Shown here: in pieces, positions 702 through 26,832 of the stretch
Layout: each line of letters opens with the position of its first letter
Numbering within the stretch: the stretch's first letter is position 1
Assembly (NCBI GenBank): GCA_018671205.1
Contig: JABHIC010000005.1
Span: 1 to 31,768, forward strand
From: Gammaproteobacteria bacterium
GTDB lineage: Bacteria; Pseudomonadota; Gammaproteobacteria; GCF-002020875
Length of the DNA stretch: 31,768 nt
Reading direction: 5' to 3'
Notes under the pieces: generated by a model
What the model saw: only the letters and a program-made list of their open reading frames with translations
The model's database searches: none
What the model was told of the DNA's origin: nothing
Position numbers and translations under genes: made by a program

Positions 702-1217
702 ATGAAAAAGCAAGTCATTAATTTATTACTACTAATAAGTGTTACTATTTTCCAAGTAACGTTAGCAGCAGGAATGGATAAGGGAGAAGTCAAGCGGATA
801 ATCATCCAAGAAGCGCAAAAAGAGAGGGTGTCCCCTGCACTTGCTCTGGCTGTTGCCAAAGTGGGTTCAGATTTTCAGCACTATACACTGGGTATTTATG
901 GTGAGCGAGGGGTTATGCAGCTCCCAAGAATAGGTCAACAGCTAACGATGGAAGAGAATGTCTCATCGGGAGTGAAGAAGCTTGCAAAACTGATGCGTGC
1001 GCATCGTCAAGATACTGAAAGAGCGCTTGAGGAATATAAAGAGGGGTGGGTTATTGGTATGACCCCAGAGCAGGTAGATAGATTCGTGGAGAAAGTACTG
1101 AGGTGGGAGATGATTTACCATAACCAACAAATAACTTGGAATAATGGAAAATATCACCAGAACTTGAGTTATCTGGATGATCCATCTATTAATAAAAGCT
1201 GGACCCGTGAATGGTAG
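702..1217 (+). CDS. Exported SLT-family lytic transglycosylase-like protein, catalytic Glu apparently lost
   Basis: Signal peptide. ALAVAKVGSDF and RGVMQL match SLT motifs I and II, but the usual E-S is G-S (codon GGT). Similar to the SLT at 19672. Confidence 0.7.
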   Translation: MKKQVINLLLLISVTIFQVTLAAGMDKGEVKRIIIQEAQKERVSPALALAVAKVGSDFQHYTLGIYGERGVMQLPRIGQQLTMEENVSSGVKKLAKLMRAHRQDTERALEEYKEGWVIGMTPEQVDRFVEKVLRWEMIYHNQQITWNNGKYHQNLSYLDDPSINKSWTREW

Positions 1218-1233
1218 AGCAGCAAGGAAGAAC

Positions 1234-2688
1234 GTGTCATTGAATAGAAGTTTTAAAAGCCTGCTAAGTTACCCAGTAGCCAGCGTACTGCTTTGCCTTC
1301 TAACTGGGTCAGGGGTGGCCGCAGATAGCAAATATATAAGCCAATCATTGCTTGAAGCGAGCCAGCATGGCCATGAAAAAGTAAAGGTCATCGCAATGAT
1401 GAAAGCTCCTTCAAAAAATAGGCCACGAGGTTGGGTTGGTTTTAACGACTATGTAAAGCAACTTCAAGATCAAGCTATTAATGAACTGGGGTGGGTTAAT
1501 CTAAACCAAATGATTCGTTATGCAAATATCCCTGCATTGGCAATGTCAGTTGACCAGCAGCAACTTCAAAGTATGGTAACGGCTCAAACTATAGCAGGGG
1601 TTTATCAGGATAGAGTAGAGAAGGTCTCTTTACAAAACTCTATCCCGGCAGTTGGCAGCCAAAAAGTCTGGAAGCAAGGTATTCAGGGTAGTGGGCAGAC
1701 TGTGGCTGTCTTGGATACGGGAGTCGATGCAAATCACCCTTTTTTGCGTGAGCAAGTGATAGAAGAGGCCTGTTTTTCAAGTAACAGTAAAGACTCAGTC
1801 ACCTTGTGTCCGAATAGAAAGGAAAAACAGCTCGGTATGGGGGCTGCAAAGCCATGTGAAAAAGGGTGTGAACATGGCACTCATGTTGCGGGGATTGTCG
1901 CAGGAAATGGGGCCTCATTTACTGGAGTGGCTCCCAAGTCAAAAATACTGGCAGTACAGGTTTTTCATGCAGAAAAAGGGTGTGACAAGAGAGAGAAAGA
2001 CTGTGTTACTGGTGCCTACCTATCTGATATTCTTCAAGGGCTGGACTGGGTTTACAGTAAGCGCTACCAATATAATATTGCGGCGGTAAACTTGAGTTTG
2101 GGAGGCGGGAAGTTTGAAGCAAGCTGTGATCGTGAAAGTTGGCCCTACGCCGTCATGATTGATCTGCTGAAACAGGCCAACATTGCAACCGTAGTAGCCA
2201 GCGGTAATGAATCCTTTGAAAATAGCCTGAATAGCCCGGCGTGTGTTACAGAAGCAGTAAGTGTAGGGGCATATAATGGTGCTGGAGGAGTAGCATCATT
2301 CTCCAATAGTTCGCCATTTTTGGATCTGTTGGCTCCAGGGCAAGCGATACATTCATCTATTCCAGGGCTCCGATTTGCAAAAAAAAGTGGCACCTCAATG
2401 GCTGCGCCACATGTGGCAGGGGCATTTGCACTGATGCGGTCACACAATCAAAAGATAAGCGTTGATGAAATGGTTGATGTAATGATGAAAACTGGGGACC
2501 GGGTTACAGATGCTAAAAATGGTGTAACCACATCTACATTGCGAATAGACAAGGCGCTGGGGGTGGGGCGCACCAAACCAGCAAAGCGCCCGATACTAAC
2601 TGAAGAGAACGATGATTTTGATGGGCTGAAAATTGAGAGAAATAAAACAAAAAATCGAGGAAATGGTTTCCGAACCCTCAATTTTTAA
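1234..2688 (+). CDS. Subtilisin-like S8 serine protease with signal peptide and probable propeptide
   Basis: Intact triad motifs VAVLDTGVD, HGTHVAGIVAG and SGTSMAAPHVAG. Start moved from 1177 to GTG 1234, which follows AAGGAAG and avoids overlap with the upstream gene. Confidence 0.92.
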   Translation: MSLNRSFKSLLSYPVASVLLCLLTGSGVAADSKYISQSLLEASQHGHEKVKVIAMMKAPSKNRPRGWVGFNDYVKQLQDQAINELGWVNLNQMIRYANIPALAMSVDQQQLQSMVTAQTIAGVYQDRVEKVSLQNSIPAVGSQKVWKQGIQGSGQTVAVLDTGVDANHPFLREQVIEEACFSSNSKDSVTLCPNRKEKQLGMGAAKPCEKGCEHGTHVAGIVAGNGASFTGVAPKSKILAVQVFHAEKGCDKREKDCVTGAYLSDILQGLDWVYSKRYQYNIAAVNLSLGGGKFEASCDRESWPYAVMIDLLKQANIATVVASGNESFENSLNSPACVTEAVSVGAYNGAGGVASFSNSSPFLDLLAPGQAIHSSIPGLRFAKKSGTSMAAPHVAGAFALMRSHNQKISVDEMVDVMMKTGDRVTDAKNGVTTSTLRIDKALGVGRTKPAKRPILTEENDDFDGLKIERNKTKNRGNGFRTLNF

Positions 2689-2772
2689 GCCTAATCTTTT
2701 CATAGATTAAGGTGTGCATACTTGGTGTGTGCGGTATGATTTTATAAATGTTAACAAAGTAAGGAGTATGGT

Positions 2773-3720
2773 ATGAAGCAGATATTGAGGACAGCATTAA
2801 CAGTAATGACCAGTGCTGCACTGATGTTGGGGGCTATGGGACTATCTACGGCCACCCAGGCTGCAGGACCTCACGTGATGGTGTTTAGTGATGATGCCGA
2901 TAAAGACACTATCAAGCGCGGTTCTCGGGTCTTTAATCGGGTCTTGAACGAACTCAATAGTGTGTTACACAGTATGGGGTATAACGTCTATGATGAAGCG
3001 GCTGTCTCCTCTAAGGAGTCAATGGATGGCAGTGGTGGCTATGCACAAGGGAGAACTCGCCGCAGTGATGTAGAAATCCTAGATATTGCACGTAGCCAGA
3101 AATCCCCACCGGTTGATGTTGCAGTGCTATTCCAAGTCTATGCCAGTGCAAAAGATATGGACTACACCACCAAAATTAACACTCGCATCTCTGGTCGGAT
3201 GTTGGCAGTCCAGTCTGGACAATTTATGGGGGACTTTGAAGTCACTAACCGTTTTAATGGTCCTGCAGACTGTAATGCTGAGTGTCTGAAAGAGATTGTG
3301 GGAAATAATGCCAAAAAGCTGGCAACGGATCTCGGTGATGCGCTTCGTATCAAGCTCGATGAGATGAGCGGTATGGGTAGCGATAGTGGTAGCTCTCTCT
3401 CTTCTGAAGGGATGAAAAAAGGGTACACGCTTAATTTTAGCCGCTTTAGCAGCGATGAGCGGATGAGAATGGAGGAGTTCCTGGTCAACATCTTCTCCGG
3501 CTATCACCATCTGCGCCCTACCGACTGCTCCAGTATGCACTGTACCTACTGGTATGAGTCTGAACTATCCAGCGCCCACCTCAATCGCAACCTTCGTAGA
3601 ATGTTAGGAGAGGATGAGATGAACATCAAACACCATATCAAGATGAGCGGTAATGAGTTCACCATCGAGAAGATCGCTACCCGTCAGAAGCGTACAACAC
3701 CTCGAAATAGCGGTTGGTAA
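2773..3720 (+). CDS. Exported hypothetical protein (315 aa); C-terminal domain paralogous to 3787-4203
   Basis: AAGGAG RBS and signal peptide ending AQA-like. C-terminal YTLNFSRF...CSSMHCTYWY motif. Confidence 0.75.
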   Translation: MKQILRTALTVMTSAALMLGAMGLSTATQAAGPHVMVFSDDADKDTIKRGSRVFNRVLNELNSVLHSMGYNVYDEAAVSSKESMDGSGGYAQGRTRRSDVEILDIARSQKSPPVDVAVLFQVYASAKDMDYTTKINTRISGRMLAVQSGQFMGDFEVTNRFNGPADCNAECLKEIVGNNAKKLATDLGDALRIKLDEMSGMGSDSGSSLSSEGMKKGYTLNFSRFSSDERMRMEEFLVNIFSGYHHLRPTDCSSMHCTYWYESELSSAHLNRNLRRMLGEDEMNIKHHIKMSGNEFTIEKIATRQKRTTPRNSGW

Positions 3721-3737
3721 GGTCCACATTGTCATGA

Positions 3738-3771
3738 TGTCTCACTGGCTCTTTTTTGATCCAGTGAGACA
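3738..3771. other. Intergenic hairpin, 11-bp perfect stem
   Basis: TGTCTCACTGG (3738-48) pairs with CCAGTGAGACA (3761-71) around a 12-nt loop. Function unknown. Confidence 0.55.
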
Positions 3772-3786
3772 CAATGGAGAAGAATC

Positions 3787-4203
3787 ATGCATCGAATAAA
3801 AACAGTACTGATAGCCATGCTCATGTTGCCGCTCACCGCCTGTGTGACACAGCCAACCGTTAAAGTGGCCTCTGGTGCAAGTGAATATAACCTCACACTG
3901 TTGGGTTTTCAGCAGAGCCAACGCCAGCAGATTGAAGATAAAATAGGTCTCGACCAACTACGTGTAATTGAGTGCTCAACCAACAACTGTGAATACTGGT
4001 ATAGCGGGACCATGACCAGTGGTAAGCTCTACCAAACACTACAAAGAGTGTTGAGCAAACAGCAGCTAAACATCCCATCCAATATCACGTTGCAACAGGG
4101 TAATATCCGTATTGTAAAGATTGCCAGTCGTCGCAATACAACAGCCCCCAAAACCACCCCTAAACCCTCCTCAAGCAAAGGAAGCTGGGTAAATCGCTGG
4201 TAG
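3787..4203 (+). CDS. Putative lipoprotein, hypothetical
   Basis: Lipobox LTAC. YNLTLLGF...CSTNNCEYWY motif shared with the C-terminus of the upstream gene. Confidence 0.75.
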   Translation: MHRIKTVLIAMLMLPLTACVTQPTVKVASGASEYNLTLLGFQQSQRQQIEDKIGLDQLRVIECSTNNCEYWYSGTMTSGKLYQTLQRVLSKQQLNIPSNITLQQGNIRIVKIASRRNTTAPKTTPKPSSSKGSWVNRW

Positions 4204-4254: not shown

Positions 4255-5418
4255 ATGGCTCTATATCAGGTTATCATTGCAACTACAGAGGGCCCCGTTC
4301 AGCTACTCAGCCTGACTGAAGAGGGCGAAGGGATCGACTCCGTTGTTTGTATTAATCGAACCGTTGAGACCGCCCCAATCAGTCGGGCCTATCACGCCTT
4401 TGTAAAAAAACCTACCGGCCTGATCGAAGAGCAGTTTGGTGGCTCCAGTTATCGTATAGATCTAGACGCTAATATTTCTGCGGGCAGAAGCTGGCAGCTA
4501 GGGGTCTATCTAGCTCACCTGTTGCGAGAACAGGGAAACTTGTCTCATCCAGCAGAGAGCCCCAACCAAGTTTTTTGGGTTACGGGAGAGGTCAATCATG
4601 ATAAAAAAATTCTGCCCATCCATCATATGGGCCAAAAACTGGAACGTTCAACAGCGCTAGTAAAAGAGCTACGTGAGGCGGGTAAGAAAATTCACTTTGT
4701 CATACCAGAGCAGAATTTGCAGGAGGTTATACAAGGTGGTCTTGAAAAGTATAGCCTCAGTGAGAGCGATCTGATACCTGTCTCAAGTCTCAAAGAGCTG
4801 GAGGATTCAGTCAACCAGTTAGAGCAGCTATCTACTACGTCACCAGACCCACTCACAAAAAAAAGGATACCAGGGTGGCAGTTAGCATTGGCAGCAATCT
4901 TGGTATCCGCAGCAGGAATTGCGGGCATCAAAGGCTACTCAACCCCAACATCTCCCACAAAGCCTCAAACCGTACGGTCTCCTGAACCAATACCGATGGT
5001 TAAGCAAATTCTGTTCGCTTGGAAACCAATCTACCGTACACAAGGCCGCTGCAAAACCGACCATCGAGAAAACACACCCTGGAACAGCAATAGCGAACCG
5101 TCACTACCACCTATTGAAGCCAGCCAACTTTGCGCCATCGAGGCGATACCGAGATTGATGATCAATGGTTCTAAAGTTATACCGCTGAAATGGCAACTCA
5201 AACTAAAGGTTAAAAGTAACCAACCCAACAACCCACTATTGAAACAGAGTGGAGAGAGCTACTCAGGGGGCGGGAATGAAGCCGGTTGGTTAATCCCTCT
5301 ATCTTCCCCCGTCATGTCCGATGCAGAACTACACTGGAATATAACGATCAGTGAGGAGAGTCGTGATGAGATACGGCACAGTGTTCGACAAAAAGTAGAA
5401 TATCGGCATCGCTGGTAG
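4255..5418 (+). CDS. Membrane-anchored protein with N-terminal Lon (S16)-like protease domain
   Basis: AGRSWQLG...WVTGEV...KILPI...QKL...FVIPEQN parallels the Lon motifs GPSAG...MTGEI...VLPIGG..EK...LIP.EN. One hydrophobic helix (WQLALAAILVSAAGIAGI) is followed by a C-terminal domain. No AAA+ module. Confidence 0.6.
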   Translation: MALYQVIIATTEGPVQLLSLTEEGEGIDSVVCINRTVETAPISRAYHAFVKKPTGLIEEQFGGSSYRIDLDANISAGRSWQLGVYLAHLLREQGNLSHPAESPNQVFWVTGEVNHDKKILPIHHMGQKLERSTALVKELREAGKKIHFVIPEQNLQEVIQGGLEKYSLSESDLIPVSSLKELEDSVNQLEQLSTTSPDPLTKKRIPGWQLALAAILVSAAGIAGIKGYSTPTSPTKPQTVRSPEPIPMVKQILFAWKPIYRTQGRCKTDHRENTPWNSNSEPSLPPIEASQLCAIEAIPRLMINGSKVIPLKWQLKLKVKSNQPNNPLLKQSGESYSGGGNEAGWLIPLSSPVMSDAELHWNITISEESRDEIRHSVRQKVEYRHRW

Positions 5419-5438: not shown

Positions 5439-7094
5439 ATGAATTTTGTTGCTAAACAGACCAAAGCACTCTGGCTCATCACCCTGCTGTTTCTTGTAAT
5501 GCACACAGCCCATGCAAACCCTATGCGAGAGTTGGCTCAGCAACTGTTACAGAGTGTCGAGCCGGGCAAGTCCATTGCACTGCGCCCCATCTTTGAGGGG
5601 GAGACTGCGCTACCACAGCAACTGGCAGATCACTACTACCAACGCCTGCTGGAAGCACTACAACAAAATGGAAAAGCGGTCCGTTTTATAGATCGTAAAC
5701 ATCTCAGGCAGCTACAACAGGAGCAAGAACAGTTCAGTGATGGTGAACTGGATTGGCAGAAACTTGCGGTTGACCTGCTGATCATCCCCCGATTGAATGC
5801 TGAAGCAACGGGAGTGCGGATATCGGCTACACTTGTTTCGGTGAAGAGTGGGGCCACGCTTGCAAGTGGTTCACAATTTTACCCCGGTATGGTGCAGCAG
5901 TTTAATGCACTACCTCTAACAGAAGCCATACATGAACTGGGCCAGCAACTTTTTAACCAATTTAAGGCGATATCACCACCATCGTTGACGGGGGGGAGGG
6001 TAGCTCAGCTGTGCCCCATTATCGAGGCAGAAAGTGGGGTAGTTGGTGCATTTGGTGATGAGTTGGGGAGGCGAGTGATCGATAGCCTCAACCCTCATCT
6101 TTTGAAGCTAGCAAGAGAGCAGCAGCGCAATCAGATGTTGCGAGGTGAGAAACATCAACCATCCCGATCAAATACGCTTTGTCTGAGTGGAACACTACGT
6201 GATCTTGGCGATAGCGTCACCGTGTCACTCAATCTGGAGGGGGTACAAGAGAGCGTCAGCGAGCTGGTGGGTAACCAACATGTAGCGATTCTCAAAAGCA
6301 CAATTCCTGAGTCACTGTTGCCGCTCACCTCTAACCGGGTGGAACAGCAGGGTGGATGGTATAGTGCCGCAGGTTCGGCGGTAGTCTCTGACCAGTTAGA
6401 GCGACAAGATGCCTTGCTGGCAGCACGCAATATGGCGCGAGCACGGATTGTTGCCAACCGATTGGGGCGCTCTGTGCCAGAGAATGGTGTTGCACGAAGC
6501 GCAGCCGATAGTATGGCTGCACTGCAACTGTTGGGAGAGGCTATCCCCTATGATGAAAGTTGGATCAACCCGGATCAGGCAAAGAGCAGCAGGGGTAGTC
6601 ATCTGTCGGTCAAGCTGGAGGCACGGATTAAAACCACGGCCACCCCGCGCCAACTACCGCTACAGGCCACGCTTCTCCCATCGCGTCATCTGCGTGCGGG
6701 TGCCCCCTTCTCTCTAAGATTGCATGGTGCACGTAGTCCACTCTATCTGGGGGTATTTGGATGGTTTTCGGATAATAGTGTGGTTCGACTCTATCCCAGT
6801 CCAGAAAGATTTGAACTGCAAATCAACCCGAACCAGAGAATACAGCTCCCTTCACCATCGGAAATGGAGTTGATAAGTGAACCGCCTCCAGGACAACGCC
6901 GTGCTCAAGAGGCACTGATTATAGCTGCATCGCCTCGCCCAATTGATTTTAATGGCCTGGCTCCGCTGGCTGGAGAGAGTATTACAGAGAGCCAGCAGCT
7001 TGCATCCACCGGAGAATCTTTTTTCAATGCCCTAGCACAGGAGCGACTGGAACAGATGCGATTGATCCTCCTCCCTTATGAGGTCTACCGATAA
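5439..7094 (+). CDS. Exported multidomain protein: FlgO/CsgG-like N-terminus, C-terminal DUF4384-like domain
   Basis: Signal peptide (AHA-NP). PLYLGVFGWFSDNSVVRLYP and QEALIIAAS resemble DUF4384. Paralog of 23231-24973. Domain names are by recognition only. Confidence 0.6.
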   Translation: MNFVAKQTKALWLITLLFLVMHTAHANPMRELAQQLLQSVEPGKSIALRPIFEGETALPQQLADHYYQRLLEALQQNGKAVRFIDRKHLRQLQQEQEQFSDGELDWQKLAVDLLIIPRLNAEATGVRISATLVSVKSGATLASGSQFYPGMVQQFNALPLTEAIHELGQQLFNQFKAISPPSLTGGRVAQLCPIIEAESGVVGAFGDELGRRVIDSLNPHLLKLAREQQRNQMLRGEKHQPSRSNTLCLSGTLRDLGDSVTVSLNLEGVQESVSELVGNQHVAILKSTIPESLLPLTSNRVEQQGGWYSAAGSAVVSDQLERQDALLAARNMARARIVANRLGRSVPENGVARSAADSMAALQLLGEAIPYDESWINPDQAKSSRGSHLSVKLEARIKTTATPRQLPLQATLLPSRHLRAGAPFSLRLHGARSPLYLGVFGWFSDNSVVRLYPSPERFELQINPNQRIQLPSPSEMELISEPPPGQRRAQEALIIAASPRPIDFNGLAPLAGESITESQQLASTGESFFNALAQERLEQMRLILLPYEVYR

Positions 7095-7109
7095 TGATGT
7101 TAAAGTATT

Positions 7110-10025
7110 ATGATTGGAGTGATATATCTGATGATGCGGGGGAATATAAAGGTGGCGCAAGTGAACAGAATTAGAGAAAAATCATCGGTCAGGATCACAT
7201 TACTGCTGCTTACACTTAGCACTGTATGGTTGGCACCGTTGAAAGCCTATGCCGAGTTTAATGATCCCATTGGGGATTTGCTTGAAAATATAGCTCCGAA
7301 TGGAGAGCAGCCCGATGATTCACTGTTTATCAATAGCAAAGAGCAGCGTGACCAATATGACCCGGATAAATTGCCTCAGCCACAACTGGAGAAGCAAGGT
7401 GATTCATTAATATTGCGTTGGAGTGGATTGCGTGCCTATCTGCATCCGGAGGCTTCGACGGTCAATGAAAATGATATGGGTTGGGGAGGTCACCAGCCAG
7501 AACAACAAAATCCGCAACAATTGGCTGAAGATTCAACCGTCCGATTAGTACACAATGCAGGAGAAAAGATACTTCACCGTCGCCTGATAGATACCGTTGA
7601 GCAAGATGCAGAAATACTGCGGGGCCTGCTTAACAAGCAATTGAAAAAATTAGACCAACCGGTGGTGGTGCAAAGCCAACGTAATAATATTGGTTTCTTT
7701 CTGTTGGCGACACCTGTGCTGACACTGGATGTTGAGTGGAAAATTCCTCTCAGAGGTATTGAGGACGTATTAAAGAAACAGCGATTCGTAGCAGAGAAGA
7801 AGCGTAAAGAAGAGAAGAAGCGCCTGGTAGCCGAGCGCAAACGTAAGGTAGCAGAACGTAAACGCAAGGCAGCAGAGGCACGCCTTGCAGCAGAACGTAA
7901 ACGCAAGGTGGAGCAAGAACGTCTGGTAGTAGAGCGTAAACGTAAGGCGGAAGAGCAACGCTTAGCGGCAGAACGCAAACGTAAGGCAGAAGAGGAACGC
8001 CTGGCAGCAGAACGCAAACGCAAAGCGGAAGAAAAACGTCTGGCAGCAGAACGTAAGCGCCAGAAGGAGGTAGAGTTAGTTAAGAAGCGCTGCCGAGAGG
8101 CACTTCCTGTTCGTGATTGGAATCGGGCATGGCAGTTGTGTCCGGGTAGTGTTGTGGCAGGACACAATGTAGTGGTTACACGGCTGGAAGAGGGGGATTC
8201 AGTCGCCGCCCTGGAGGCATTGCAAGAGTTGAAGAAGCGTTTCCCAGCTCATCCACGGGTAAAAAAGTTACAAGATATGCTGCTCTCCCCCTTTAAGTTG
8301 GCCGGGGAGCGTGCGCAGCGTAAATTGCAGCAGTGGGTAATGCGCCCCAGCGAAGTGCCGCCATTTACCGAACGGCCACCTCAAAAGCCAGAGGCACCAC
8401 CACTACCGACTCTGGTCAAGGATGAGTTTGAGACGACTGCAATGTTTCAGAACAGGGTGGAGCAGGCCCGAAAGCAGCGTGAAGAGTTGATTCGTGAAAT
8501 TGAAGAGGATTACATAGCAGAGGTAGACTCATTTAATGCAGCAGTGAAGCGGCATAATGAGATCGTGAAACAGGAACAGGCAGATCGTGCCAGTAACCAG
8601 AAACGGGCACAAATGCGTCGTCAATTTCTTGCTGAGACGATTAGCGAGGTGTTGGGTGATCCGAAACTGGGTGAGCTCAAGTATGATGCAGACAGTGCCA
8701 CCTTCTTTACACGGTTATATACCCGCAATGGCCTGTTTGATGAGCGTGTCACAGTCTCCGTACCGCTCGATCAGGCGCGAGATTTCAAGCGTGGTGCAAG
8801 CGCCGTTGAACCGAGAATTTACTTCAGCGAAGATAATGGTGTGTTGAAGCTGGCCCGGATTGAGGCGCATCTGGAAAATAACCACTACAGCGTAGCACAG
8901 ACGCAAGAGAGCTTTGTCCCTGTGACCTTGAAGCAGCAGGTTGCCGCTGTAGATCTGATGATTGATGAGTTGCCGATGCTGGAGACAGAAGCACTGGATA
9001 CATCAGCGCTGGTGGCAGATAGCGATAACTACTTTAAAGAGGCGTTGCAACTACAAAAGGATCCTCAACTGGCCAAACTGCAACAGCAGGAGGCGGAAAA
9101 CCGTCGAAAACTGCGTGATGCGCAGCAGCGCAGAGCAAGGGAAGAGAGACGCAAGCGTATGGAAGAGGTAGTGCGTGAACAACAACGCCAACTGGCTGTG
9201 TTGGGTGGTCCGGAAGCGGAGGAGCTGAAAGGGTTGGAGCCAAAACGTAGTTGGCGTTTCCAGAGAGCGGCCTCTGATCAAAAAGTTGCTGAGGAGAGCT
9301 ATGCGGTGGTGATTGGTAATCGTAACTATCGTAATGGGGTACCCATGCTCCACTATGCACGCAATGATGCCAAAGCGATGCGCCAGTTCTTCCATGAGGC
9401 GATGGGGTTGCCCGAGGAGAACATTCTCTATCAGGAAGATGCCACCATGGGGGATATGGTGGGTATCTTTGAGTCTAGCCTGCCCAAGCGGGTTCAAGCG
9501 GATAAGAGTAAGGTCTACGTCTATTTCTCTGGCCATGGTATGCCCACGGGTAAGGATGCGCGACTGCTGCCGGTGGATAGCCGTCCAGAGACAGCGGAAG
9601 TGACCGGTTATTCGCGCAAACGGATGCTGCAACAGCTAGCAATGCTGTCGGCCAGTGAGACCACAGTAATGCTGGATGCCTGTTTTACTGGTATATCAGG
9701 TGGTCGCTCACTAACGCCGGGGGCAAAGGCGATCTACCGTCGTGCACCGGATGCAGGGGTGCCAAAAAATATGGTGCTGATCAGTGCCAGTGGTGCCGAT
9801 GAAAGCTCCTGGCAGGATGATGAGGCAGGGTTGAGCTTGATGACACTCCACTTTTTAGAGGGCGTTACAGGTAAGGCCGATCAAGACGGGGATAGAGCCA
9901 TCCATACCAGCGAACTGCAGAGCTATCTGCAGGGAGAGGTAAACAGAGCAGCCGTTATTTTGCATGAGAGCAGTCAACATCCGCAGGTGCGGGGTAGCGC
10001 GCGTTCGCTATTGCGTTATGAATAG
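7110..10025 (+). CDS. Large exported caspase-family (peptidase C14) protein with charged coiled-coil repeats
   Basis: C-terminal YAVVIGNRNY, YFSGHG (His) and MLDACFTG (Cys) motifs. Signal-like segment ending AYA-EF. Exact start uncertain. Confidence 0.88.
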   Translation: MIGVIYLMMRGNIKVAQVNRIREKSSVRITLLLLTLSTVWLAPLKAYAEFNDPIGDLLENIAPNGEQPDDSLFINSKEQRDQYDPDKLPQPQLEKQGDSLILRWSGLRAYLHPEASTVNENDMGWGGHQPEQQNPQQLAEDSTVRLVHNAGEKILHRRLIDTVEQDAEILRGLLNKQLKKLDQPVVVQSQRNNIGFFLLATPVLTLDVEWKIPLRGIEDVLKKQRFVAEKKRKEEKKRLVAERKRKVAERKRKAAEARLAAERKRKVEQERLVVERKRKAEEQRLAAERKRKAEEERLAAERKRKAEEKRLAAERKRQKEVELVKKRCREALPVRDWNRAWQLCPGSVVAGHNVVVTRLEEGDSVAALEALQELKKRFPAHPRVKKLQDMLLSPFKLAGERAQRKLQQWVMRPSEVPPFTERPPQKPEAPPLPTLVKDEFETTAMFQNRVEQARKQREELIREIEEDYIAEVDSFNAAVKRHNEIVKQEQADRASNQKRAQMRRQFLAETISEVLGDPKLGELKYDADSATFFTRLYTRNGLFDERVTVSVPLDQARDFKRGASAVEPRIYFSEDNGVLKLARIEAHLENNHYSVAQTQESFVPVTLKQQVAAVDLMIDELPMLETEALDTSALVADSDNYFKEALQLQKDPQLAKLQQQEAENRRKLRDAQQRRAREERRKRMEEVVREQQRQLAVLGGPEAEELKGLEPKRSWRFQRAASDQKVAEESYAVVIGNRNYRNGVPMLHYARNDAKAMRQFFHEAMGLPEENILYQEDATMGDMVGIFESSLPKRVQADKSKVYVYFSGHGMPTGKDARLLPVDSRPETAEVTGYSRKRMLQQLAMLSASETTVMLDACFTGISGGRSLTPGAKAIYRRAPDAGVPKNMVLISASGADESSWQDDEAGLSLMTLHFLEGVTGKADQDGDRAIHTSELQSYLQGEVNRAAVILHESSQHPQVRGSARSLLRYE
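7791..8063 (+). repeat. Coding tandem repeat, ~39-bp unit (AERKRKAEExRLA), six full plus partial copies
   Basis: Read directly in the DNA and protein of the caspase gene. Confidence 0.9.
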
Positions 10026-11440: not shown

Positions 11441-11522
11441 CATTGCTGAAAATAAAAAAGGGACAGATTTATTTTAGAGGCTGCAGAATGTCTAACTTTT
11501 AATCCTCCCTAGTAATACATTT

Positions 11523-11569: not shown

Positions 11570-11576
11570 AATAAGT

Positions 11577-15990: not shown

Positions 15991-16000
15991 GGAGCACAGC

Positions 16001-16894: not shown

Positions 16895-16918
16895 CCGAGC
16901 TTGAACAGGAGTAGAGAG

Positions 16919-17350: not shown

Positions 17351-17351
17351 G

Positions 17352-19209: not shown

Positions 19210-19210
19210 G

Positions 19211-20181: not shown

Positions 20182-21682
20182 TGTTTTTCCTTTTTTGCAG
20201 CAGGGGGTCAGCAGTGACCTCAAGTCAGTTTTTGAGCTGCTGGAGACCACCGAGATTGATGGTCAGAACAAATACAGCGCCAAAGGGCACCAGAAATTGA
20301 TGTTGCTGGTGGTCTGCCGCAACTATAGCAAGGCGCTGCTCGAACTCTGTTATCTGATTGTTATGGTGGTCTCTCCTCTGCAGAGTGAGAAGCGAAAAAA
20401 GGGGCTCTACCACTTCTTCTTCGGTATCTCACCCGCTGCAGCCAGCCAATATAGCCACCATTTCGGTGATACTGGCGACAATATTGGTGATGAGCCACTG
20501 CGTTCGATAGAGGTAGAGGGGGGAGAATTCTCAATCTATTTCTCTAGAATGCCGGTGCTGGTTGAGTTGATGGAGTTGATGATTACGCTGCTGGACTACA
20601 GGGAGATCGAGGGGATACTGACTCCGTTGATGGAGAGAGAGTCACTGAGTAAGCCCCTGAACAAGAAATTGGTTTCAGAGGTGGCCAATGCGCTCAGCGC
20701 CCAGTTCTATCAAGAGATGAACCACCATCTTCCCGCAGCGCAGCAGCAGCGGAAGTATCAGCAGATTGCACAGTTTATGTTGTCACGGCACCCAGATGGT
20801 TTTCGTTACCACCAGATTGGCGATGATGAGGTGCTGGAGTTCTGGAAGGCGTTCAGTGAACAGCAGAGTCGATCTGCTGAAGACTTTGTGAAGTATGCCT
20901 CGGTATTGGGTGGCTTCATGGACTTCTACCGCACCTCCAAGGTGGTCTATGAGATGGAGGTGAGTAGAGCATACTCATCACATGAGAGTATGAGTGAGGG
21001 GGAGATCGCACAGAGCTTGCACGATGTGATGGTAGAGGAAGAGGAGTTACCGTTAGAGCAGTTGAGTGAGTCACCAGTCGATCGGGTGAAGTTTCTCAAT
21101 AAACGGGAGCTGGATCAGCTGCGTTGGCTGTTTGAGAGTCCACAGCCCGTTATTCAGCACTTTATGTGCTCCTGCCTGAGAAGCCGGTTGTTTGGGTCGA
21201 TCCAGAACCAGTTGATTGAACAGCTGCGGCGTAGAGAAGGTGCAGGGGCGGAGATGGATCTGCTGATTGAACAGATAATGGGGTCGGATTGGCAAGGCTA
21301 CCAACCGCTGTTGGATCAGGACCAGAAGTTGAGCCAGTTTTTGCAACGTCTGCTGTTTGCATCACTCCATCCACTGTTTCAGCGTGAGCAGCAAGTGACA
21401 GATTGGGGGGCGCTGATCGGGCCAGAAGAGAGTGAATGGAATCTGCGCAAGCGGGCAAGGTCTGAATTTTCAAAAATCAGCAGAAAAGGGTTTGAAAAAC
21501 AGAATAGTGGTGAGCAGGCGGAGATCTTTATCCAGGCAATACCGATCCTGCTGGGAATTCGCAAGCGCTTCTCCAGCTATCAGCAGTGGCTGCAACAGGA
21601 TGAACGCATTGAGCAGCGCAGTAGAGAAGATCAAAGGGTGTTTAAAAAAGTGCTGAAACAGATTTATCAGATAAGGAGATAG
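20174..21682 (+). CDS. Cytoplasmic helical hypothetical protein (502 aa)
   Basis: Long ORF coupled to its neighbours. No signal peptide and no motif recognised. Confidence 0.7.
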   Translation: MRNVFPFLQQGVSSDLKSVFELLETTEIDGQNKYSAKGHQKLMLLVVCRNYSKALLELCYLIVMVVSPLQSEKRKKGLYHFFFGISPAAASQYSHHFGDTGDNIGDEPLRSIEVEGGEFSIYFSRMPVLVELMELMITLLDYREIEGILTPLMERESLSKPLNKKLVSEVANALSAQFYQEMNHHLPAAQQQRKYQQIAQFMLSRHPDGFRYHQIGDDEVLEFWKAFSEQQSRSAEDFVKYASVLGGFMDFYRTSKVVYEMEVSRAYSSHESMSEGEIAQSLHDVMVEEEELPLEQLSESPVDRVKFLNKRELDQLRWLFESPQPVIQHFMCSCLRSRLFGSIQNQLIEQLRRREGAGAEMDLLIEQIMGSDWQGYQPLLDQDQKLSQFLQRLLFASLHPLFQREQQVTDWGALIGPEESEWNLRKRARSEFSKISRKGFEKQNSGEQAEIFIQAIPILLGIRKRFSSYQQWLQQDERIEQRSREDQRVFKKVLKQIYQIRR

Positions 21683-21685: not shown

Positions 21686-22219
21686 ATGAACAGCGTAAAT
21701 ATGGAGCGGGTTAAAGAAGAGCTTTTTGTCTCCCTGTCACTGATGAGAGATGCAAAAGAGGGGCGCAGAGAGGATGTAGTGAGAGGGGCATCGGCCTCTG
21801 AGATCTATCACTATGTGATGGGTGGAGAGGTTAATGGTGTGATGGATGCAAAAATTTCAGACGACCAGGGCTCCAGTGAACTCTATCGACAGTTTATTGA
21901 AGCACATGCACGCTTCTACATTCCTCAGGCCGCTGCTGCCAGTAGTGATCAGCAGTTGATGAGCAGGGAGAGCAATGAGGTTGTGGTCCGCCTGATACCC
22001 TCCAGAACTGAACCCGAGCAGATCTACCTTGTGGTTGAATTCAGATACGACCGGAAGGGTAAAGAACGTGCTCGATTGACCGTGTTTGGTAAAGAGGGGG
22101 AACAGGCACACATTCAGCTCACCGGGATTGCTGCCGGGCGCTGTCAGTTACTGATGAAGAGAGATACAGCGCTGATTCAGCTACTGCAACAGGTCGATTC
22201 AGAACTGTTTATTGTTTAG
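21686..22219 (+). CDS. Cytoplasmic hypothetical protein (177 aa)
   Basis: Coupled ORF. Helical N-terminus, PQAAAAS linker, beta-rich C-terminus. Confidence 0.65.
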   Translation: MNSVNMERVKEELFVSLSLMRDAKEGRREDVVRGASASEIYHYVMGGEVNGVMDAKISDDQGSSELYRQFIEAHARFYIPQAAAASSDQQLMSRESNEVVVRLIPSRTEPEQIYLVVEFRYDRKGKERARLTVFGKEGEQAHIQLTGIAAGRCQLLMKRDTALIQLLQQVDSELFIV

Positions 22220-22307: not shown

Positions 22308-23225
22308 ATGAACAGAGCACGATCCATACTATTCATTATTCTACTCTCACTCACGTTTGGCTCGGCCCAGGCCATCATCGGCAGCTTCAAACTAAACGCC
22401 CCGGCAATACGTGCGGTCGATGTGGACAGCAACATACCCGCAGGAAGAGCGGCCGGAGAGTACGATATCGCCCTGTTGATTGGCAACCGCAACTACCCGC
22501 GTGAAGGCATACCCAATGTCGACTACGCCCATAATGACTTGAAGACCATGCGCAACTACCTTCAGAAAACCATGGGCTTTCGTGCTGACAACATCATAGT
22601 AGAGAAAGACCTCACCAAAGGCAGCTTCGAGACCCTGTTTGGTACCGCCGCCAACCCCAGAGGAAAATTGCAGCGTTACCTGATGGCTGGTGAGAGCAAG
22701 CTCTTTATCTACTATGTAGGGCATGGCGCACCCGATCCAGAGAGCGGAGATGGCTTCTTTGTACCGGTAGATGCCGACCCTGACTACATCGCCAACTCAG
22801 GCTATAAACTGGCCACCTTCTACGCCAACCTGAAACGGCTACCAGCCAAACAGACCATAGTGGTACTCGATGCCTGTTTTTCAGGGCGTACCCAAAAAGG
22901 GCTGCTGTTTAAAAATGTCAGCCCTGCACTGCTCAAGGTGAATGAGAGCCAATTCGGCCTAAGCTCAGGTGCAGTCTTCTCCAGTGCACGCGGTAGCCAG
23001 CTCTCCACCTGGTACCCAAAAAAACGCCATAGCATGTTTAGCTACTACTTCTTCAAGGGGATGCAAGGTGCCGCAGACAGCAACAGTGATGGCAAGATTA
23101 CCAGCGGAGAGATGCAACACTATGTGGCAAAAAATGTTCGTTATATGGCCGGCAGAGTGGCAGGCAAAGATCAAGAGCCACAAATGGAAGGGGAGAAGGG
23201 GCTGGTGCTGGCCCACCTGCGTTAA
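22308..23225 (+). CDS. Exported stand-alone caspase-family (peptidase C14) protein
   Basis: Signal peptide ending AQA. ALLIGNRNY, YYVGHG (His) and VLDACFSG (Cys) motifs. Confidence 0.9.
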   Translation: MNRARSILFIILLSLTFGSAQAIIGSFKLNAPAIRAVDVDSNIPAGRAAGEYDIALLIGNRNYPREGIPNVDYAHNDLKTMRNYLQKTMGFRADNIIVEKDLTKGSFETLFGTAANPRGKLQRYLMAGESKLFIYYVGHGAPDPESGDGFFVPVDADPDYIANSGYKLATFYANLKRLPAKQTIVVLDACFSGRTQKGLLFKNVSPALLKVNESQFGLSSGAVFSSARGSQLSTWYPKKRHSMFSYYFFKGMQGAADSNSDGKITSGEMQHYVAKNVRYMAGRVAGKDQEPQMEGEKGLVLAHLR

Positions 23226-23230: not shown

Positions 23231-24973
23231 ATGGCCAAGCTGAATTTACCGACCATGCAGTTCCCTCCTCCTATCAGGGGGAGGGTTAGGGAGGGGGTTA
23301 AGTGGTTGAGTTATGCTCTCCACTCCACCTCCATCCAAGCCCTACTGCTGCTCTCTCTACTGCTCTCTCCGCTATCTGCCCAGGCAGAGAGCGACACTGC
23401 ACCCATTTTTAAACGCTTTGCCACCCAGCTAACCCAGCAACTTCCACCACAGAGCCGAGTAGCAATAGAGCCACTGCGCTACCAGCCGATCGGTATACCC
23501 AGAGAGATTGCCGCACAGATCGATGATCAGATCTACCACGCCCTGCACCAGCAGCGCAAAGCAGAGATGAGGCTGCTGGCAAGGTCTCAACTACGACAGA
23601 TCTGGCGAGAGATTGGTGAATTTGAGAGCAGAGAGATCAACCAACAGCTAGAGGATGCCAGAGCTGATATCCTGGTTCTTGCACGCACTACAGCAGTAGC
23701 TACTGGAGTAGAGCTGCGTTATCAGGCATACGCCCTGCAAGATGGAAAAACAGGACAACTGCTCGCCTCCACCGAACCGGCAATCTTGACCCACAAACAG
23801 CTCACCCCCACCCCGCAGCGGCTTGAGATTGCCATTGCCCAATCGGTAGAGAGGGTGCTACCACAGCTTACCTTGCTGCTGAATGGAGAGCCGTTGCAGA
23901 TTAAACAGATCGGCCCTGTCGGTGATCTAAGAGACTACATCACCATCCCCCTGATCCAACAACTTATACAGCGCACAGCAGAGCAGGCACGGAAGCAGGA
24001 GGTAAATATCAGCCGTTCTCTCGAACGATCCAAACCGCGCCCAACCACCACACTCACACTACAGAGTGATCTCTGGAAACAGCCAGATAGCCTGAAGATT
24101 CAGCTCACCTTGCAGAGCCCAGACCAGCAGCAGATTCAACTCACCCTGATGATTGCGCTAGATCCGACACTACAGCAGATGCTACAAGGGGTGCCACTGG
24201 GGCGAATCCATAACGGCTACCGGCAGACCACAGCCGGCGCTGAAATTGGCAGAGCCTTTGAAAATCGTCGGGCCGCCACCCAGGCCGCCAGAATTGCCGC
24301 CCGAGCAGCGCTGATCCGTATGGCCCTGATGCCGGGTAGCGTGCAAAATAGCGCAACAGTAACGGCCTCACCTCTAGCCGCACTCAGCCAGCAACCCCCG
24401 CTGATGCGTGAAACCCAGAGAGCAATCACCGTAGATGAGCAGTGGCAAGGCACACCCCATGGCAATCGGGTCGAGCAGACCCTGCGTGCCCGGGTGGTCC
24501 AACTTGCCAATCCGCCACCACAAAATTTGAAAGCAACGCTGCAAACAGAACAGATTCTGGCCGGAGAGCCGATACAGATCAATCTCACCCCCACCACTCG
24601 CCACAAGCTCTATCTGGGTGTTTTCGTCTGGCAGGCGGATGACACAGTAGTACGCATCTATCCACAGCCCTCCAAACCACAATTCACCCTCAATACACCA
24701 CTACAGATCCCGCAACCCTACGAGGATCAACTCACCAGCTACCCGATGCCGGGAGAGCGGGCCAATCAAGAGGCGATCATCCTGCTGGCAAGCCAGAGCC
24801 CACTCGATTACGCCGCCATGGCCCCCACTGTCCGAACCGATATTGGTCAACCCTTCAAGGCCCGCCCCGTTGCACAGTTCTGGAAGGCGATCACTGAAAT
24901 CGGACTAGAGTTGCCTCGGCTGCAGCTACAGGTGCTACCCTACAGCGTGCATCAATCCACTGATAGAGAATAG
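23231..24973 (+). CDS. Exported FlgO/CsgG-like plus DUF4384-like protein, paralog of 5439-7094
   Basis: KLYLGVFVWQADDTVVRIYP and QEAIILLASQSPLDY align with the paralog. Signal ending AQA-ES. True start uncertain. Confidence 0.65.
   Translation: MAKLNLPTMQFPPPIRGRVREGVKWLSYALHSTSIQALLLLSLLLSPLSAQAESDTAPIFKRFATQLTQQLPPQSRVAIEPLRYQPIGIPREIAAQIDDQIYHALHQQRKAEMRLLARSQLRQIWREIGEFESREINQQLEDARADILVLARTTAVATGVELRYQAYALQDGKTGQLLASTEPAILTHKQLTPTPQRLEIAIAQSVERVLPQLTLLLNGEPLQIKQIGPVGDLRDYITIPLIQQLIQRTAEQARKQEVNISRSLERSKPRPTTTLTLQSDLWKQPDSLKIQLTLQSPDQQQIQLTLMIALDPTLQQMLQGVPLGRIHNGYRQTTAGAEIGRAFENRRAATQAARIAARAALIRMALMPGSVQNSATVTASPLAALSQQPPLMRETQRAITVDEQWQGTPHGNRVEQTLRARVVQLANPPPQNLKATLQTEQILAGEPIQINLTPTTRHKLYLGVFVWQADDTVVRIYPQPSKPQFTLNTPLQIPQPYEDQLTSYPMPGERANQEAIILLASQSPLDYAAMAPTVRTDIGQPFKARPVAQFWKAITEIGLELPRLQLQVLPYSVHQSTDRE
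23261..23300. repeat. G/C-rich palindromic repeat unit at the 5' end of the 23231 ORF
   Basis: CCCTCCTCCT-ATC-AGGGGGAGGG followed by TTAGGGAGGGGG; translates as FPPPIRGRVREG. Confidence 0.55.
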
Positions 24974-25120: not shown

Positions 25121-25417
25121 GTGATTATAGGTTTTAGGGATAAGTGGTTAGAGCAATTTTATCTGCAGAATAGAGGAACCAAAAAAATCCCAGCATCTGT
25201 GCGTGATCGGTTATTTCGTAAGTTGCAGCTGATAGATGATGCATCATCTGATGTGGATTTACGAGTACCAACCAGTAACCATTTTGAAAAATTATCCGGA
25301 CGACTGGAGCCGTTCTGCTCAATACGGGTTAACAGGCAGTGGAGATTAATTTTTCGTTGGAATGGTGAGAGGGGTGAGGCAGAGTCTCTCTACTTAGACA
25401 ACCATGATTATCGTTGA
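25121..25417 (+). CDS. higB: HigB-family (RelE-like) toxin
   Basis: MIxxFRDKWLEQFY...DLRVPTSNHFEKLSG...SIRVNRQWRLIFRW; toxin precedes antitoxin. Confidence 0.9.
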   Translation: MIIGFRDKWLEQFYLQNRGTKKIPASVRDRLFRKLQLIDDASSDVDLRVPTSNHFEKLSGRLEPFCSIRVNRQWRLIFRWNGERGEAESLYLDNHDYR

Positions 25418-25423
25418 GGTGAA

Positions 25424-25732
25424 ATGATGAATATTACAAAGCGTAAACCGGTAGGGGTTGGAGAGATGTTAACGGAAGAGTTTATGGCACCCCTTGATAT
25501 AACTCAGAGTAAGCTTGCAGAAGCAATGGGGGTTAGTAGAAAGACAGTGAATGAGTTATGTAATGATAGGCGCTCAATTACGGCAGAGAGCGCATTAATG
25601 TTAAGCCGCGTGTTTGGTAATAGCGCAGATTTTTGGCTAAATCTTCAGCAAAGAATAGATATCTGGGAGGTGTTGAACTCACCTAAACGAAGGCATCGAA
25701 TAGAGATGGCTCACCCTATTACCGTGAATTAA
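25424..25732 (+). CDS. higA: HigA-family antitoxin (XRE HTH)
   Basis: GEMLTEEFMAPLDITQSKLAEAMGVSRKTVNEL...ITAESALMLSRVFGNSADFWLNLQ. Confidence 0.9.
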   Translation: MMNITKRKPVGVGEMLTEEFMAPLDITQSKLAEAMGVSRKTVNELCNDRRSITAESALMLSRVFGNSADFWLNLQQRIDIWEVLNSPKRRHRIEMAHPITVN

Positions 25733-25749
25733 GAGATAGACCCACTACC

Positions 25750-26832
25750 ATGAGAACAGCCCCCTACATCATATTGCTACTCCTCCTTCCCGGTCTGCTG
25801 TTTGCGGCCGATATTCCAACCGTCACTTCACTGGAGATGGAACAGAAGCTGGATGAGCTTCACCTCAACTACACCCTGGAGAGCCCCACGGGGGCCTATG
25901 CCGAGGTACTGCTGGAGATCAGTGAAGATCAGGGCGGAAATTGGCGTACCCCCAAAGGGGCGAAGGGGGATATCGGCAGTGGAATCCCCGCTGGAGCCAA
26001 CCGGATCATCTGGGATATCTATAGCGAATACCCTAAAGGGATTCAGGGGGTGGTCGATTTTAAGCTTCAGACCCGTGCCGAACAGCAGCAGACCCCGGAA
26101 CAAAAGGCTGGGGATAGCTGGACGGACCCCTATAGTGGAATAGAGTTTGTGTGGATTCCTGCAGGAGAGTTTATGATGGGTAGCCCATCCTCTGAGCCAG
26201 GTAGAGATGATGATGAGCGGCAACATCGGGTTAAGCTGAGCGAAGGGTACTGGCTGGGCAGATACGAAGTGACTCAGAGGCAGTGGAAAAAAGTGATGGG
26301 GAACAACCCCTCGAAATTCACAAGCTGCGGCAGCGACTGCCCGGTAGAGAAGATCTCATGGGAGGATACCCAGGACTTTATCCGCAAGCTAAACGGCAGA
26401 GGCAACGGCAGCTTCAAACTGCCGAGTGAGGCGCAGTGGGAGTATGCGGCCCGAGCAGGGACCACCACCCCGTTCTCGTTTGGAAACAACATCACCGCCT
26501 CACAGGCAAACTATGATGGAAACTACCCCTACAACGGCAATGCCAAAGGACGTTACCGGAAGACTACTGTAACGGTGGGCAGTTTTCCAGCCAACCGATG
26601 GGGACTGCATGAGATGCATGGCAACGTATGGGAGTGGCTGAATGACTGGAAAGGGAATTATCCGTCGGGCACGGTAACAGATCCGGAGGGACCCGGCTCG
26701 GGTCAGTACCGCGTGATTCGTGGCGGCAGCTGGAACCGCTACGCGGGGTCCCTGCGTTCTGCGAATCGCAACTACTATTCGCCCGGCGGTCGCGGCTACG
26801 ACCTCGGGGTTCGTCTTATGAGGCAACCTTAG
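25750..26832 (+). CDS. DGR target protein 3 (cassette-proximal): signal peptide, beta-rich N-domain, FGE-sulfatase/CLec domain with VR3
   Basis: Same FGE-domain motifs as the other targets; 3' end matches the TR. Confidence 0.95.
   Translation: MRTAPYIILLLLLPGLLFAADIPTVTSLEMEQKLDELHLNYTLESPTGAYAEVLLEISEDQGGNWRTPKGAKGDIGSGIPAGANRIIWDIYSEYPKGIQGVVDFKLQTRAEQQQTPEQKAGDSWTDPYSGIEFVWIPAGEFMMGSPSSEPGRDDDERQHRVKLSEGYWLGRYEVTQRQWKKVMGNNPSKFTSCGSDCPVEKISWEDTQDFIRKLNGRGNGSFKLPSEAQWEYAARAGTTTPFSFGNNITASQANYDGNYPYNGNAKGRYRKTTVTVGSFPANRWGLHEMHGNVWEWLNDWKGNYPSGTVTDPEGPGSGQYRVIRGGSWNRYAGSLRSANRNYYSPGGRGYDLGVRLMRQP
26698..26822 (+). repeat. DGR variable repeat VR3
   Basis: Ungapped 125-nt alignment to TR with 19 mismatches, all at TR adenines. 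Confidence 0.97.

Follow-up and report, generated by a model that had tools for sequence, protein, structure and literature searches.

A putative envelope-sensing gene cluster with a Lon-like membrane protein and hypermutable FGE/CLec neighbours in a marine gammaproteobacterium

Gene content of the locus

The window analysed here is the entire 31.8-kb contig (JABHIC010000005.1) of a marine metagenome-assembled gammaproteobacterial genome (2.63 Mb, 84% complete), and our subject is the run of plus-strand genes between positions 702 and 26832. For this run an initial annotation had proposed an undescribed envelope system in which three targets of a diversity-generating retroelement (DGR), four protease genes of three classes, two DUF4384-type proteins, two homologues of the lytic transglycosylase family SLT and an ExbB/ExbD/TonB-like set are coupled for recognition and proteolysis. 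Domains were called with Pfam, NCBIfam and PADLOC scans, the Pfam scan covering 31 window proteins. Nearly all of the co-oriented genes had been described as encoding exported, lipid-anchored or membrane proteins and this is borne out, 20 of the 26 plus-strand genes in the region carrying a signal peptide, a lipobox or a transmembrane (TM) segment; the six without an export or membrane signal are those for the proteins named A and B below and for two toxin–antitoxin (TA) pairs. The genes without a family name are referred to here as A (20174–21682), B (21686–22219), C (4255–5418), P315 and P138 (together 2773–4203) and M1–M7 (15421–19657). None of their products has a Pfam or NCBIfam match, and PADLOC gives only weak matches of ZorA models to M4. 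All genes from SLTa to the DGR core lie on the plus strand unless stated otherwise.

Judged by sequence comparison, the locus appears to be built around a constant core of two cytoplasmic proteins (A and B) and one membrane protein (C), which is usually accompanied by two lytic transglycosylases and often by P315/P138, DUF4384 proteins and M1–M7. To this the lineage of the window seems to have added two exported caspase–DUF4384 pairs, an S8 subtilase, three FGE/CLec binders and an adjoining DGR that rewrites them. The conserved cluster is found in dozens of other lineages and no name appears to exist for it; nor did a literature search find a paper that describes the present gene combination.

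Conservation of the cluster across lineages

Protein A was used as the marker for locus retrieval: species genomes yielded 26 loci and metagenomes 44, and several more were added by identity. The 74 related loci fall into 23 lineages at 60% A identity, the window's own population being left out, and their six-frame open reading frames (ORFs) were searched with all of the window proteins; lineage counts out of 16 cover the lineages whose locus reaches 12 kb. In a profile search of 1.84 billion proteins the A family has 922 representatives at E ≤ 1e-3. No A was found in 14 genomes of the same genus and there was no match to it among plasmid or phage records.

The genes recur in the order P315 (with P138), DUF4384, M7, SLT, SLT, A, B, C, M1, M2, M3, M4, M5, M6, as seen for example in loci L093, L064, L056, L074, L078, L072, L058, L025 and L029. 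B lies downstream of A in all 16 lineages and C follows B in 14, an SLT gene adjoins A in 11, M genes are present in 6–7, P315 and DUF4384 in six each, C14 and FGE in four each and S8 in two, while the reverse transcriptase (RT) and Avd of a DGR are present in none. Every canonical member occurs once in the window, though not in the usual order: at the left lie SLTa, P315, P138, C and one DUF4384 gene, and M1–M7, SLTb, A and B follow about 10 kb further to the right, with the DGR targets and the TA pairs between them. The A–B adjacency is kept, and C and SLTa have been displaced from their usual places by rearrangement. The gene-neighbourhood search suggested with the initial annotation was largely positive, in that an ordered cluster recurs among the 23 lineages.

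The exported proteases and FGE proteins recur beside the core in differing arrangements. In locus L037 (Candidatus Thiodiazotropha taylori) A–B–C is ringed by nine FGE genes, three caspase genes, one DUF4384 gene and one SLT gene; the 10 caspase, FGE and DUF4384 genes that were checked all have signal peptides or lipoboxes, and A, B and C themselves are only 27–31% identical between this locus and the window. A Sedimenticolaceae genome (L021) has genes for P138, P315, S8, a caspase, an SLT, A, B and C in succession. A caspase gene also adjoins the cluster in L024, L063 and L087, an S8 gene in L082 as well as in L021, and an FGE gene heads the cluster in L093. Because Peptidase_C14 is present in only five of 21 related genomes, with one or two copies in each, the repeated placement of caspases within 10 kb of A is far beyond chance, which would put such rare families less than 10 kb from A in under about 1% of genomes. 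From these arrangements the caspases, FGE proteins and S8 are best regarded as recurrent accessories of A–B–C and not as random neighbours.

The nearest relative of the M block is L002, which is colinear with it at 50–89% identity. In this locus (positions 10368–19584) the cluster is followed by a gene for a 1203-amino-acid (aa) ankyrin-repeat protein and by unnamed genes, one of them with a FliG_C domain, and AbiEii-like genes lie upstream of the cluster.

The core proteins A, B and C

A (20174–21682), the core marker, is a cytoplasmic protein of 502 aa. Its structural model is all-helical (predicted local distance difference test score (pLDDT) 87.6, predicted template modelling score (pTM) 0.83) and has no fold relative in the PDB, the best Foldseek E being 0.4 and the best VIA-align Z being 7.1 on helical segments; its relatives in the AlphaFold DB are all unnamed. 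PAS-GGDEF diguanylate cyclase genes stand directly beside A in two lineages (L003, 8940–9893; L031, L032, L038), an arrangement that hints at a tie to cyclic di-GMP signalling.

B (21686–22219) is a cytoplasmic protein of 177 aa whose model (pLDDT 85) consists of a helical N-terminal part, an exposed loop and a beta-sandwich. The loop carries the motif P-x-AAASSG followed by Arg (residues 80–94; window 21920–21970), which is invariant in 22 of 22 B sequences and is the likeliest candidate for a cleavage or docking site. Searching PDB sequences with a B profile gave nothing significant. A MATH/TRAF-like fold was considered for B, and as the corresponding fold-search rows are weak (E about 1e-3, Z up to 4.2) this was not used.

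C (4255–5418), the third core gene, encodes a Lon-like domain (residues 1–190), a TM helix (residues 205–223) and a periplasmic domain. Two residues of the Lon-like domain, Ser79 and (49 positions further on) Lys128, do not vary in 18 sequences. A C profile against the PDB gave weak hits (E 0.02–0.4) that are almost all Lon proteases, with CalpL in addition, and Atlas models of C superpose on Lon_C, RadA and ChlI domains with template modelling scores (TM-scores) of 0.65–0.70; there was no match to Pfam Lon_C at E ≤ 0.01. The protein is without an AAA+ module: its Lon-like domain begins with residue 1, the TM helix comes after it and there is no AAA match. We take C from these features to be a single-pass membrane protein with a cytoplasmic Lon-like Ser–Lys domain and a periplasmic part that varies between lineages. 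In L006 and L034 an FGE domain that is 38% identical to the window targets is fused to the periplasmic side of C.

Lytic transglycosylases and the P315 family

Both predicted SLT homologues match the Pfam SLT family. SLTa (702–1217; E 2.7e-5) is an exported lytic transglycosylase homologous to the leading member of the canonical SLT pair, and in relatives it is the longer SLT encoded upstream of A that it matches; SLTb (19672–20181; E 1e-22) is a lipoprotein lytic transglycosylase encoded directly upstream of A. P315 (2773–3720) is an exported canonical member of an unnamed family, with 26 homologues beside A in other loci. It has no Pfam match and no match among PDB sequences, and Pfam scans of 13 members gave no shared family. 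P138 (3787–4203), a lipoprotein with a lipobox, has a C-terminal domain in common with P315 (30% identity to residues 218–313 of the latter) and has homologues in L021, L064 and L093. The family ends in Gly-x-Trp, which is kept in distant relatives (NSGW, GEGW and GDKW in L021, L003 and others) and may be a recognition or sorting signal. A Trp is also C-terminal in SLTa (1206–1217), P138 (4192–4203) and C (5407–5418), the end of P315 itself being at 3709–3720.

The M1–M7 genes

M1 (a lipoprotein of 189 aa), M2 (an exported coiled-coil protein of 297 aa) and M3 (149 aa) are encoded at 15421–17350, have no family match and are colinear in L002 and in 6–7 of the 16 lineages. M4 (17352–17891), a four-helix membrane protein of 179 aa, is a divergent candidate for a MotA/ExbB/TolQ-like protein: ZorA models of PADLOC match it weakly (E 6.5e-4 to 0.02) and are the sole PADLOC hits in the block, hhalign against the MotA/ExbB set of the same genome gives a probability of 54% over residues 95–150, and in the Atlas comparison with MotA_ExbB the feature score is 0.88 and the TM-score 0.59. 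A search of PDB sequences with the M4 profile gave nothing significant. The likeness is weak and consistent across methods. M5 (151 aa, anchored), M6 (288 aa, single-pass and Pro-rich) and M7 (148 aa, a single TM helix) follow at 17888–19657. M6 has a conserved C-terminal domain and is like TonB or TolA in its single-pass, Pro-rich layout alone, and M7 recalls MotB only by its TM helix, in which Glu12 is invariant, and by an AFF motif. M5 also contains an SAQ repeat (18044–18061) that is the site of an in-frame indel between samples.

Exported proteases and DUF4384 proteins

The prediction of four protease genes of three classes is supported by Pfam for three of them, both C14 enzymes having intact dyads and the S8 enzyme its triad motifs, and less strongly for the Lon-like protein C, for which the invariant Ser79 and Lys128, the weak PDB hits and the TM-scores given above are the evidence. 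The S8 subtilase (1177–2688; Peptidase_S8 E 3e-45) is an exported accessory protein in whose translation the motifs LDTG, HGTH and GTSMA (D, H and S) are present. C14a (7110–10025; Peptidase_C14 E 3e-17) is an exported caspase homologue of 971 aa with the His–Cys dyad kept (SGHG and DACF), and its L037 orthologue is 43% identical over 645 aa. The gene contains at least four 39-nt tandem units (7851–8068) that encode the Lys/Arg/Glu-rich sequence AERKRKAEE.RL, probably a coiled-coil spacer that precedes the caspase domain. C14b (22308–23225; Peptidase_C14 E 6e-16) is an exported caspase homologue of 305 aa which likewise keeps the dyad (VGHG and DACF) and is 62–63% identical to two L037 genes and 57% identical to one L021 gene, all of them beside A–B–C.

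The two predicted DUF4384-type proteins were also recovered, both of them below the cut-off. DUF4384a (5439–7094; exported; E 7.7e-5) and DUF4384b (23231–24973; E 7.4e-5) score 23.1 and 23.2 bits against a 27-bit cut-off for PF14326, while their homologues beside the cluster in L025 and L024 score 64.9 and 51.5 bits. The true start of DUF4384b is probably the TTG at 23306, past a 46-nt palindromic element (23259–23304; CCCTCCTCC...GGGGGAGGG) that lies in the gap between C14b and DUF4384b. The same element is found on RNA-library contigs from other loci (summed depth about 100, with many loose ends) and there is one additional copy on contig C115.

The DGR, its targets and the inserted TA pairs

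The DGR core (26934–28838) encodes an HRDC protein, bAvd (Pfam bAvd E 2.3e-21) and an RT (RVT_1 E 4.5e-21). It is followed by a template repeat (TR; 28843–28970), identified by repeat analysis as a 128-nt match to the 3′ end of all three targets. Target 1 (10050–11093; Pfam FGE-sulfatase E 2.7e-45) is an exported FGE/CLec protein with its variable repeat (VR1) at 10956–11083. Target 2 (12650–14974; E 1.7e-47; VR2 14837–14964) combines a long exported coiled-coil N-terminal region with an FGE/CLec domain, and in target 3 (25750–26832; E 1.3e-44; VR3 26695–26822) a signal peptide and a small beta domain come before an FGE/CLec domain. Genes with the architecture of target 3 sit downstream of C14b orthologues in L037. 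The three VRs differ from the TR at 20, 21 and 21 positions respectively, and all 62 of these mismatches fall on TR adenines with none on other bases, as the claim of three DGR targets requires. Contigs from other samples are 99.5–99.98% identical to the window, and in the four that differ inside a VR the three VRs (1.8% of the length) hold 41–72% of the differences, most of those outside the VRs being repeat indels. We conclude from these substitution patterns that the DGR of the window is real and active. Among the indels between samples are an in-frame change in the KARAEA repeat of target 1 (10254–10271) and one of 12 nt in the spacer before BrnT (11408–11419).

Behind each target stands the same non-coding cassette (11094–11355, 14975–15230 and 26833–27004), which contains a GC hairpin with a T-run; another 90 nt are 100% identical between copies 1 and 2, and the cassette looks portable and terminator-like. 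Two TA pairs recognised by Pfam lie among these genes, BrnT/BrnA at 11541–12105 and HigB/HigA at 25121–25732. A duplicated 53-nt piece from the 5′ end of target 3 flanks the latter, and BrnT/BrnA is found in none of the related loci. Both pairs are insertions, and BrnT/BrnA stands outside the system. On the sampled loci the DGR and the TA pairs are specific to the lineage of the window; the FGE array of L037 has no TR-like repeat, the only RT found in that genome is 28% identical and lies on another contig, and no DGR is claimed for that locus.

The N-terminal part of target 2 was compared with a 368-aa Terasakiella cluster protein, and the resemblance (23% identity, pairwise E 0.001) was taken to reflect a generic FlgT_N/LPP20-like motif and not a link. 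Two further DGRs, each with an FGE target, Avd and RT, were seen in the same genome on contigs C436 (about 494–2759) and C16 (about 6414–8708). Their RTs are 41–43% identical to that of the window, their targets are plain FGE proteins, and on these short contigs they have no caspase or A–B–C neighbours. In the gap between BrnA and target 2 there is a minus-strand ORF of 139 aa (12239–12658) that is called as a gene in sister contigs and has no family match, and to the right of the DGR (within 29249–31645) are genes for an HU protein and a DUF2787 protein.

Interpretation of the cluster

The explanation that we favour, and consider somewhat better than an even bet, is that the window holds a complete but rearranged copy of a widespread unnamed proteobacterial cluster which senses conditions in the envelope, signals to the cytoplasm and has proteolysis as its output. 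In the mechanism that we infer, periplasmic binding domains, which are free and hypermutable here and fused to C in some relatives, would take up a ligand from the envelope or from outside. C would relay the signal over the inner membrane and would cut or release a cytoplasmic partner, most likely B at the AAASSG loop, with the outcome that the state of A changes. The M module and the SLTs would construct and energise a link through the peptidoglycan, and the caspases and S8 would serve in the periplasm, as proteases that process other proteins or as effectors. Since FGE is fused to C in relatives, an FGE/CLec domain can be the outside input, and on the same grounds the free hypermutable FGE proteins of the window may be exchangeable inputs to the same pathway. 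For the step from recognition to proteolysis put forward in the initial annotation, it is this fusion and not the presence of caspases that gives the strongest support.

The claim that the genes form one system is largely supported for A–B–C, the SLTs, P315/P138, DUF4384 and M1–M7, which are conserved together, and in a looser sense for the recurrent caspases, FGE proteins and S8, but not for the DGR and the TA pairs, which are lineage-specific. Co-occurrence of FGE genes with the protease and motor genes in other genomes, on which the initial annotation had staked the proposal, is seen in part, FGE being present in four of the 16 lineages and fused to C in two lineages; L002 is without it on its 19.7-kb contig.

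Several observations weigh against the explanation that we favour. RT or Avd was found in none of the 16 lineages, so that no related locus carries a DGR, caspases, FGE and S8 are missing from most lineages, and L002 has no caspase, FGE or DGR within its 19.7-kb contig. A caspase operon that includes a weak DUF4384-like gene (phmmer E 3.7e-5 in one case) occurs without A–B–C in two congeners, from which it follows that a caspase–DUF4384 pair can stand alone. A complex prediction for the N-terminal domain of C with B scored 0.01, a value that counts neither for nor against binding.

The motor label stands only in part. PF01618 does not match M4 even at E ≤ 10, though it finds eight other genes in the genome; M6 has no Pfam, NCBIfam or PDB match and no TonB or TolA C-terminal domain; and M7 has no match to ExbD or MotB_plug models at E ≤ 10 and no PDB hit. 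Because hhalign of M7 with the ExbD and MotB sets of the same genome gave a probability of less than 1%, the ExbD label was dropped. What stands of the proposed ExbB/ExbD/TonB-like set is therefore the weak but convergent MotA/ExbB/ZorA signal of M4, while M6 and M7 match no TonB, ExbD or MotB model, and a putative ion motor is suggested by the weak similarity of this one protein.

Transcription also bears on the matter. The GC hairpin and T-run that follow each DGR target split the co-oriented region, and for this reason the 25 or so genes are probably several transcription units. On the supporting side, contigs from four seawater metatranscriptome runs (three studies) match M1–M6, SLTb, A, B, C14b and DUF4384b at 100% identity and some of them bridge the junctions M2–M3–M4 and C14b to DUF4384b, but such RNA-library contigs give neither strand nor level and may include carried-over DNA.

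Three rival explanations were ranked below the envelope-sensing cluster. The first to be weighed is defence against phage or competitors, in which the membrane module would sense a breach of the envelope as in Zorya, the FGE proteins would recognise invader surfaces in the periplasm and the caspases, S8 and C would carry out abortive or protective proteolysis. The patchy distribution of the cluster, with A not found in the 14 congeners, would suit such a role, as would the TA pairs that adjoin it in the window, the AbiEii gene in L002, the rank of the ZorA models as best named hits of M4 and the turnover of the VRs between samples, and DGR-diversified FGE proteins and caspase-type peptidases have been proposed as sensors and effectors of conflict systems (PMC7159879, PMC10907252). 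We nevertheless hold defence to be unlikely, as PADLOC recognises no component other than M4 (and that one by the weak ZorA-model hits), nuclease, NTPase, TIR and pore effectors are all missing, phage and plasmid records contain no match to A, and in eight Terasakiella and Methylocystaceae genomes the cluster occupies a fixed site among housekeeping genes, unlike a defence island. A sensor and not a conduit is also what the cytoplasmic Lon-like domain with its variable, sometimes FGE-bearing, periplasmic partner looks like, and this counts against a machine that assembles or exports an adhesin or surface structure, on the lines of Agl-Glt/Nfs or type IX secretion, in which the M module would energise the process, the SLTs would open the wall, P315, DUF4384, the proteases and the FGE proteins would be cargo or structure, and the DGR would vary an adhesin. 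Two dedicated SLTs are typical for wall-spanning machines, among the proteins of the cluster are one that is MotA/ExbB-like, one that is Pro-rich and anchored, and a lipoprotein, the accessory proteins are all exported, the Gly-x-Trp end of P315 could serve as a sorting signal and PAS-GGDEF genes adjoin A in two lineages; on the other hand no outer-membrane channel, secretin or barrel protein was recognised and several lineages have A–B–C alone without an M gene or SLT, and we rate this machine as less probable again than defence.

It could finally be that the genes form a mosaic assembled by chance, in which a mobile DGR and its target cassettes, caspase–DUF4384 pairs and TA modules landed in and around an unrelated envelope operon without any joint function. 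The broken order, with C and SLTa 15 kb from A–B, is what a mosaic would show, and so are the portable 3′ cassette of about 300 nt behind the targets, the duplicated 5′ ends of target 3 that enclose HigBA, the L002 block without caspase, FGE or DGR and the other DGRs of the genome without such neighbours. Against it, caspase, FGE, DUF4384 and S8 genes recur beside A–B–C in independent lineages and in differing arrangements, FGE is fused to C in two lineages, and placement within 10 kb of A would be expected by chance in under about 1% of genomes; we regard the mosaic as the least probable of the explanations.

A bolder form of the envelope-sensing explanation, which we put forward tentatively and as rather doubtful, is that the cluster represents a new class of envelope sensing or immune machine, in which the Lon-like C together with A and B reads periplasmic binders, a proton-driven module and wall-cutting enzymes assist, and a DGR can programme the inputs. 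If this were true, a free-living marine bacterium would possess an adaptive repertoire of extracytoplasmic receptors coupled to periplasmic caspases. About 13 co-inherited families are without a Pfam, NCBIfam or PADLOC model, bar the weak matches of ZorA models to M4, and a comparison with solved structures gave no significant relative for A, B, C, M4, M6, M7 and P315. The cluster joins stator-like membrane modules, regulated transmembrane proteolysis and bacterial caspases, which are usually studied apart, and it provides a concrete and conserved partner for the CLec proteins that DGRs diversify in free-living bacteria, directly so where FGE is fused to the Lon-like C. What chromosomal DGR targets signal to becomes testable, the more readily as cultivable Terasakiella isolates carry the core, among them Terasakiella sp. 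A23 (L030), on whose scaffold P315, SLT, GGDEF, A, B and C are encoded.

Comparison with known systems

DGR-diversified FGE/CLec domains together with caspase-type peptidases have been described for conflict systems, most of them cytoplasmic (PMC7159879, PMC10907252, PMC8195603). At their centre are switches of the MoxR-vWA, STAND or GTPase type together with adaptor domains (Kaur et al. 2020; Dore et al. 2024). The window resembles these systems in that a C-terminal FGE/CLec domain is hypermutated by a neighbouring RT–Avd DGR, several targets share one template, caspase-family genes lie nearby and the binder is the proposed sensor. It differs from them in that the 31 window proteins contain no MoxR, STAND, GTPase, vWA or adaptor domain by Pfam, the targets and caspases all have signal peptides and the conserved partner consists of A–B–C, the SLTs and the M module.

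With Tol-Pal and TonB-ExbB-ExbD the cluster has in common that an inner-membrane candidate for a MotA/ExbB-like protein (M4), a small single-pass protein with an invariant acidic TM residue (M7), a Pro-rich single-pass protein (M6) and a lipoprotein are encoded together. Unlike in those systems, neither M4 nor M7 is matched by the Pfam models MotA_ExbB, ExbD and MotB_plug, and TolB, Pal, a TonB C-terminal domain and a TonB-dependent receptor are all missing; the ordinary sets are encoded elsewhere in the genome, and 7–9 of the 16 lineages with A have no M genes within the sampled stretch. The likeness to Zorya lies in ZorA as the best named match of M4, in the combination of a membrane module with cytoplasmic proteins of unknown action and in the patchy distribution, whereas M4 with its 179 aa is without the long ZorA tail and neither a ZorB peptidoglycan-binding domain nor ZorC, ZorD or ZorE is present. 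The Agl-Glt/Nfs systems of Myxococcus are wall-spanning complexes in which a TolQR-like motor works with tetratricopeptide-repeat lipoproteins, Pro-rich TonB-like proteins and periplasmic and cytoplasmic partners; we know of no counterpart of A, B or C in them. The statement of the initial annotation that it knew of no named system with such a composition fits these comparisons: the features that define Zorya, the MoxR-vWA and STAND systems, ExbD/MotB and TonB/TolA were not found here, and the literature searched gave no system with the same combination.

For the core itself a parallel may be seen in CalpL, the Lon-SAVED protease, which is among the weak PDB hits of C. In C the protease would be held in the membrane with the sensor outside and the Lon-like domain inside, there is no SAVED domain and no sigma/anti-sigma pair was recognised; unlike CalpL in these respects, C is like it in joining a ligand-binding domain to a protease that is predicted to cut a small partner encoded next to it. 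BlaR1-type receptors, with which the layout of C was also compared, likewise join a sensor domain to a protease. With a part that varies between lineages on the outside, a Lon-like domain on the inside and A and B encoded alongside, the layout of C would thus suggest a receptor that acts by proteolysis, as CalpL or BlaR1 do.

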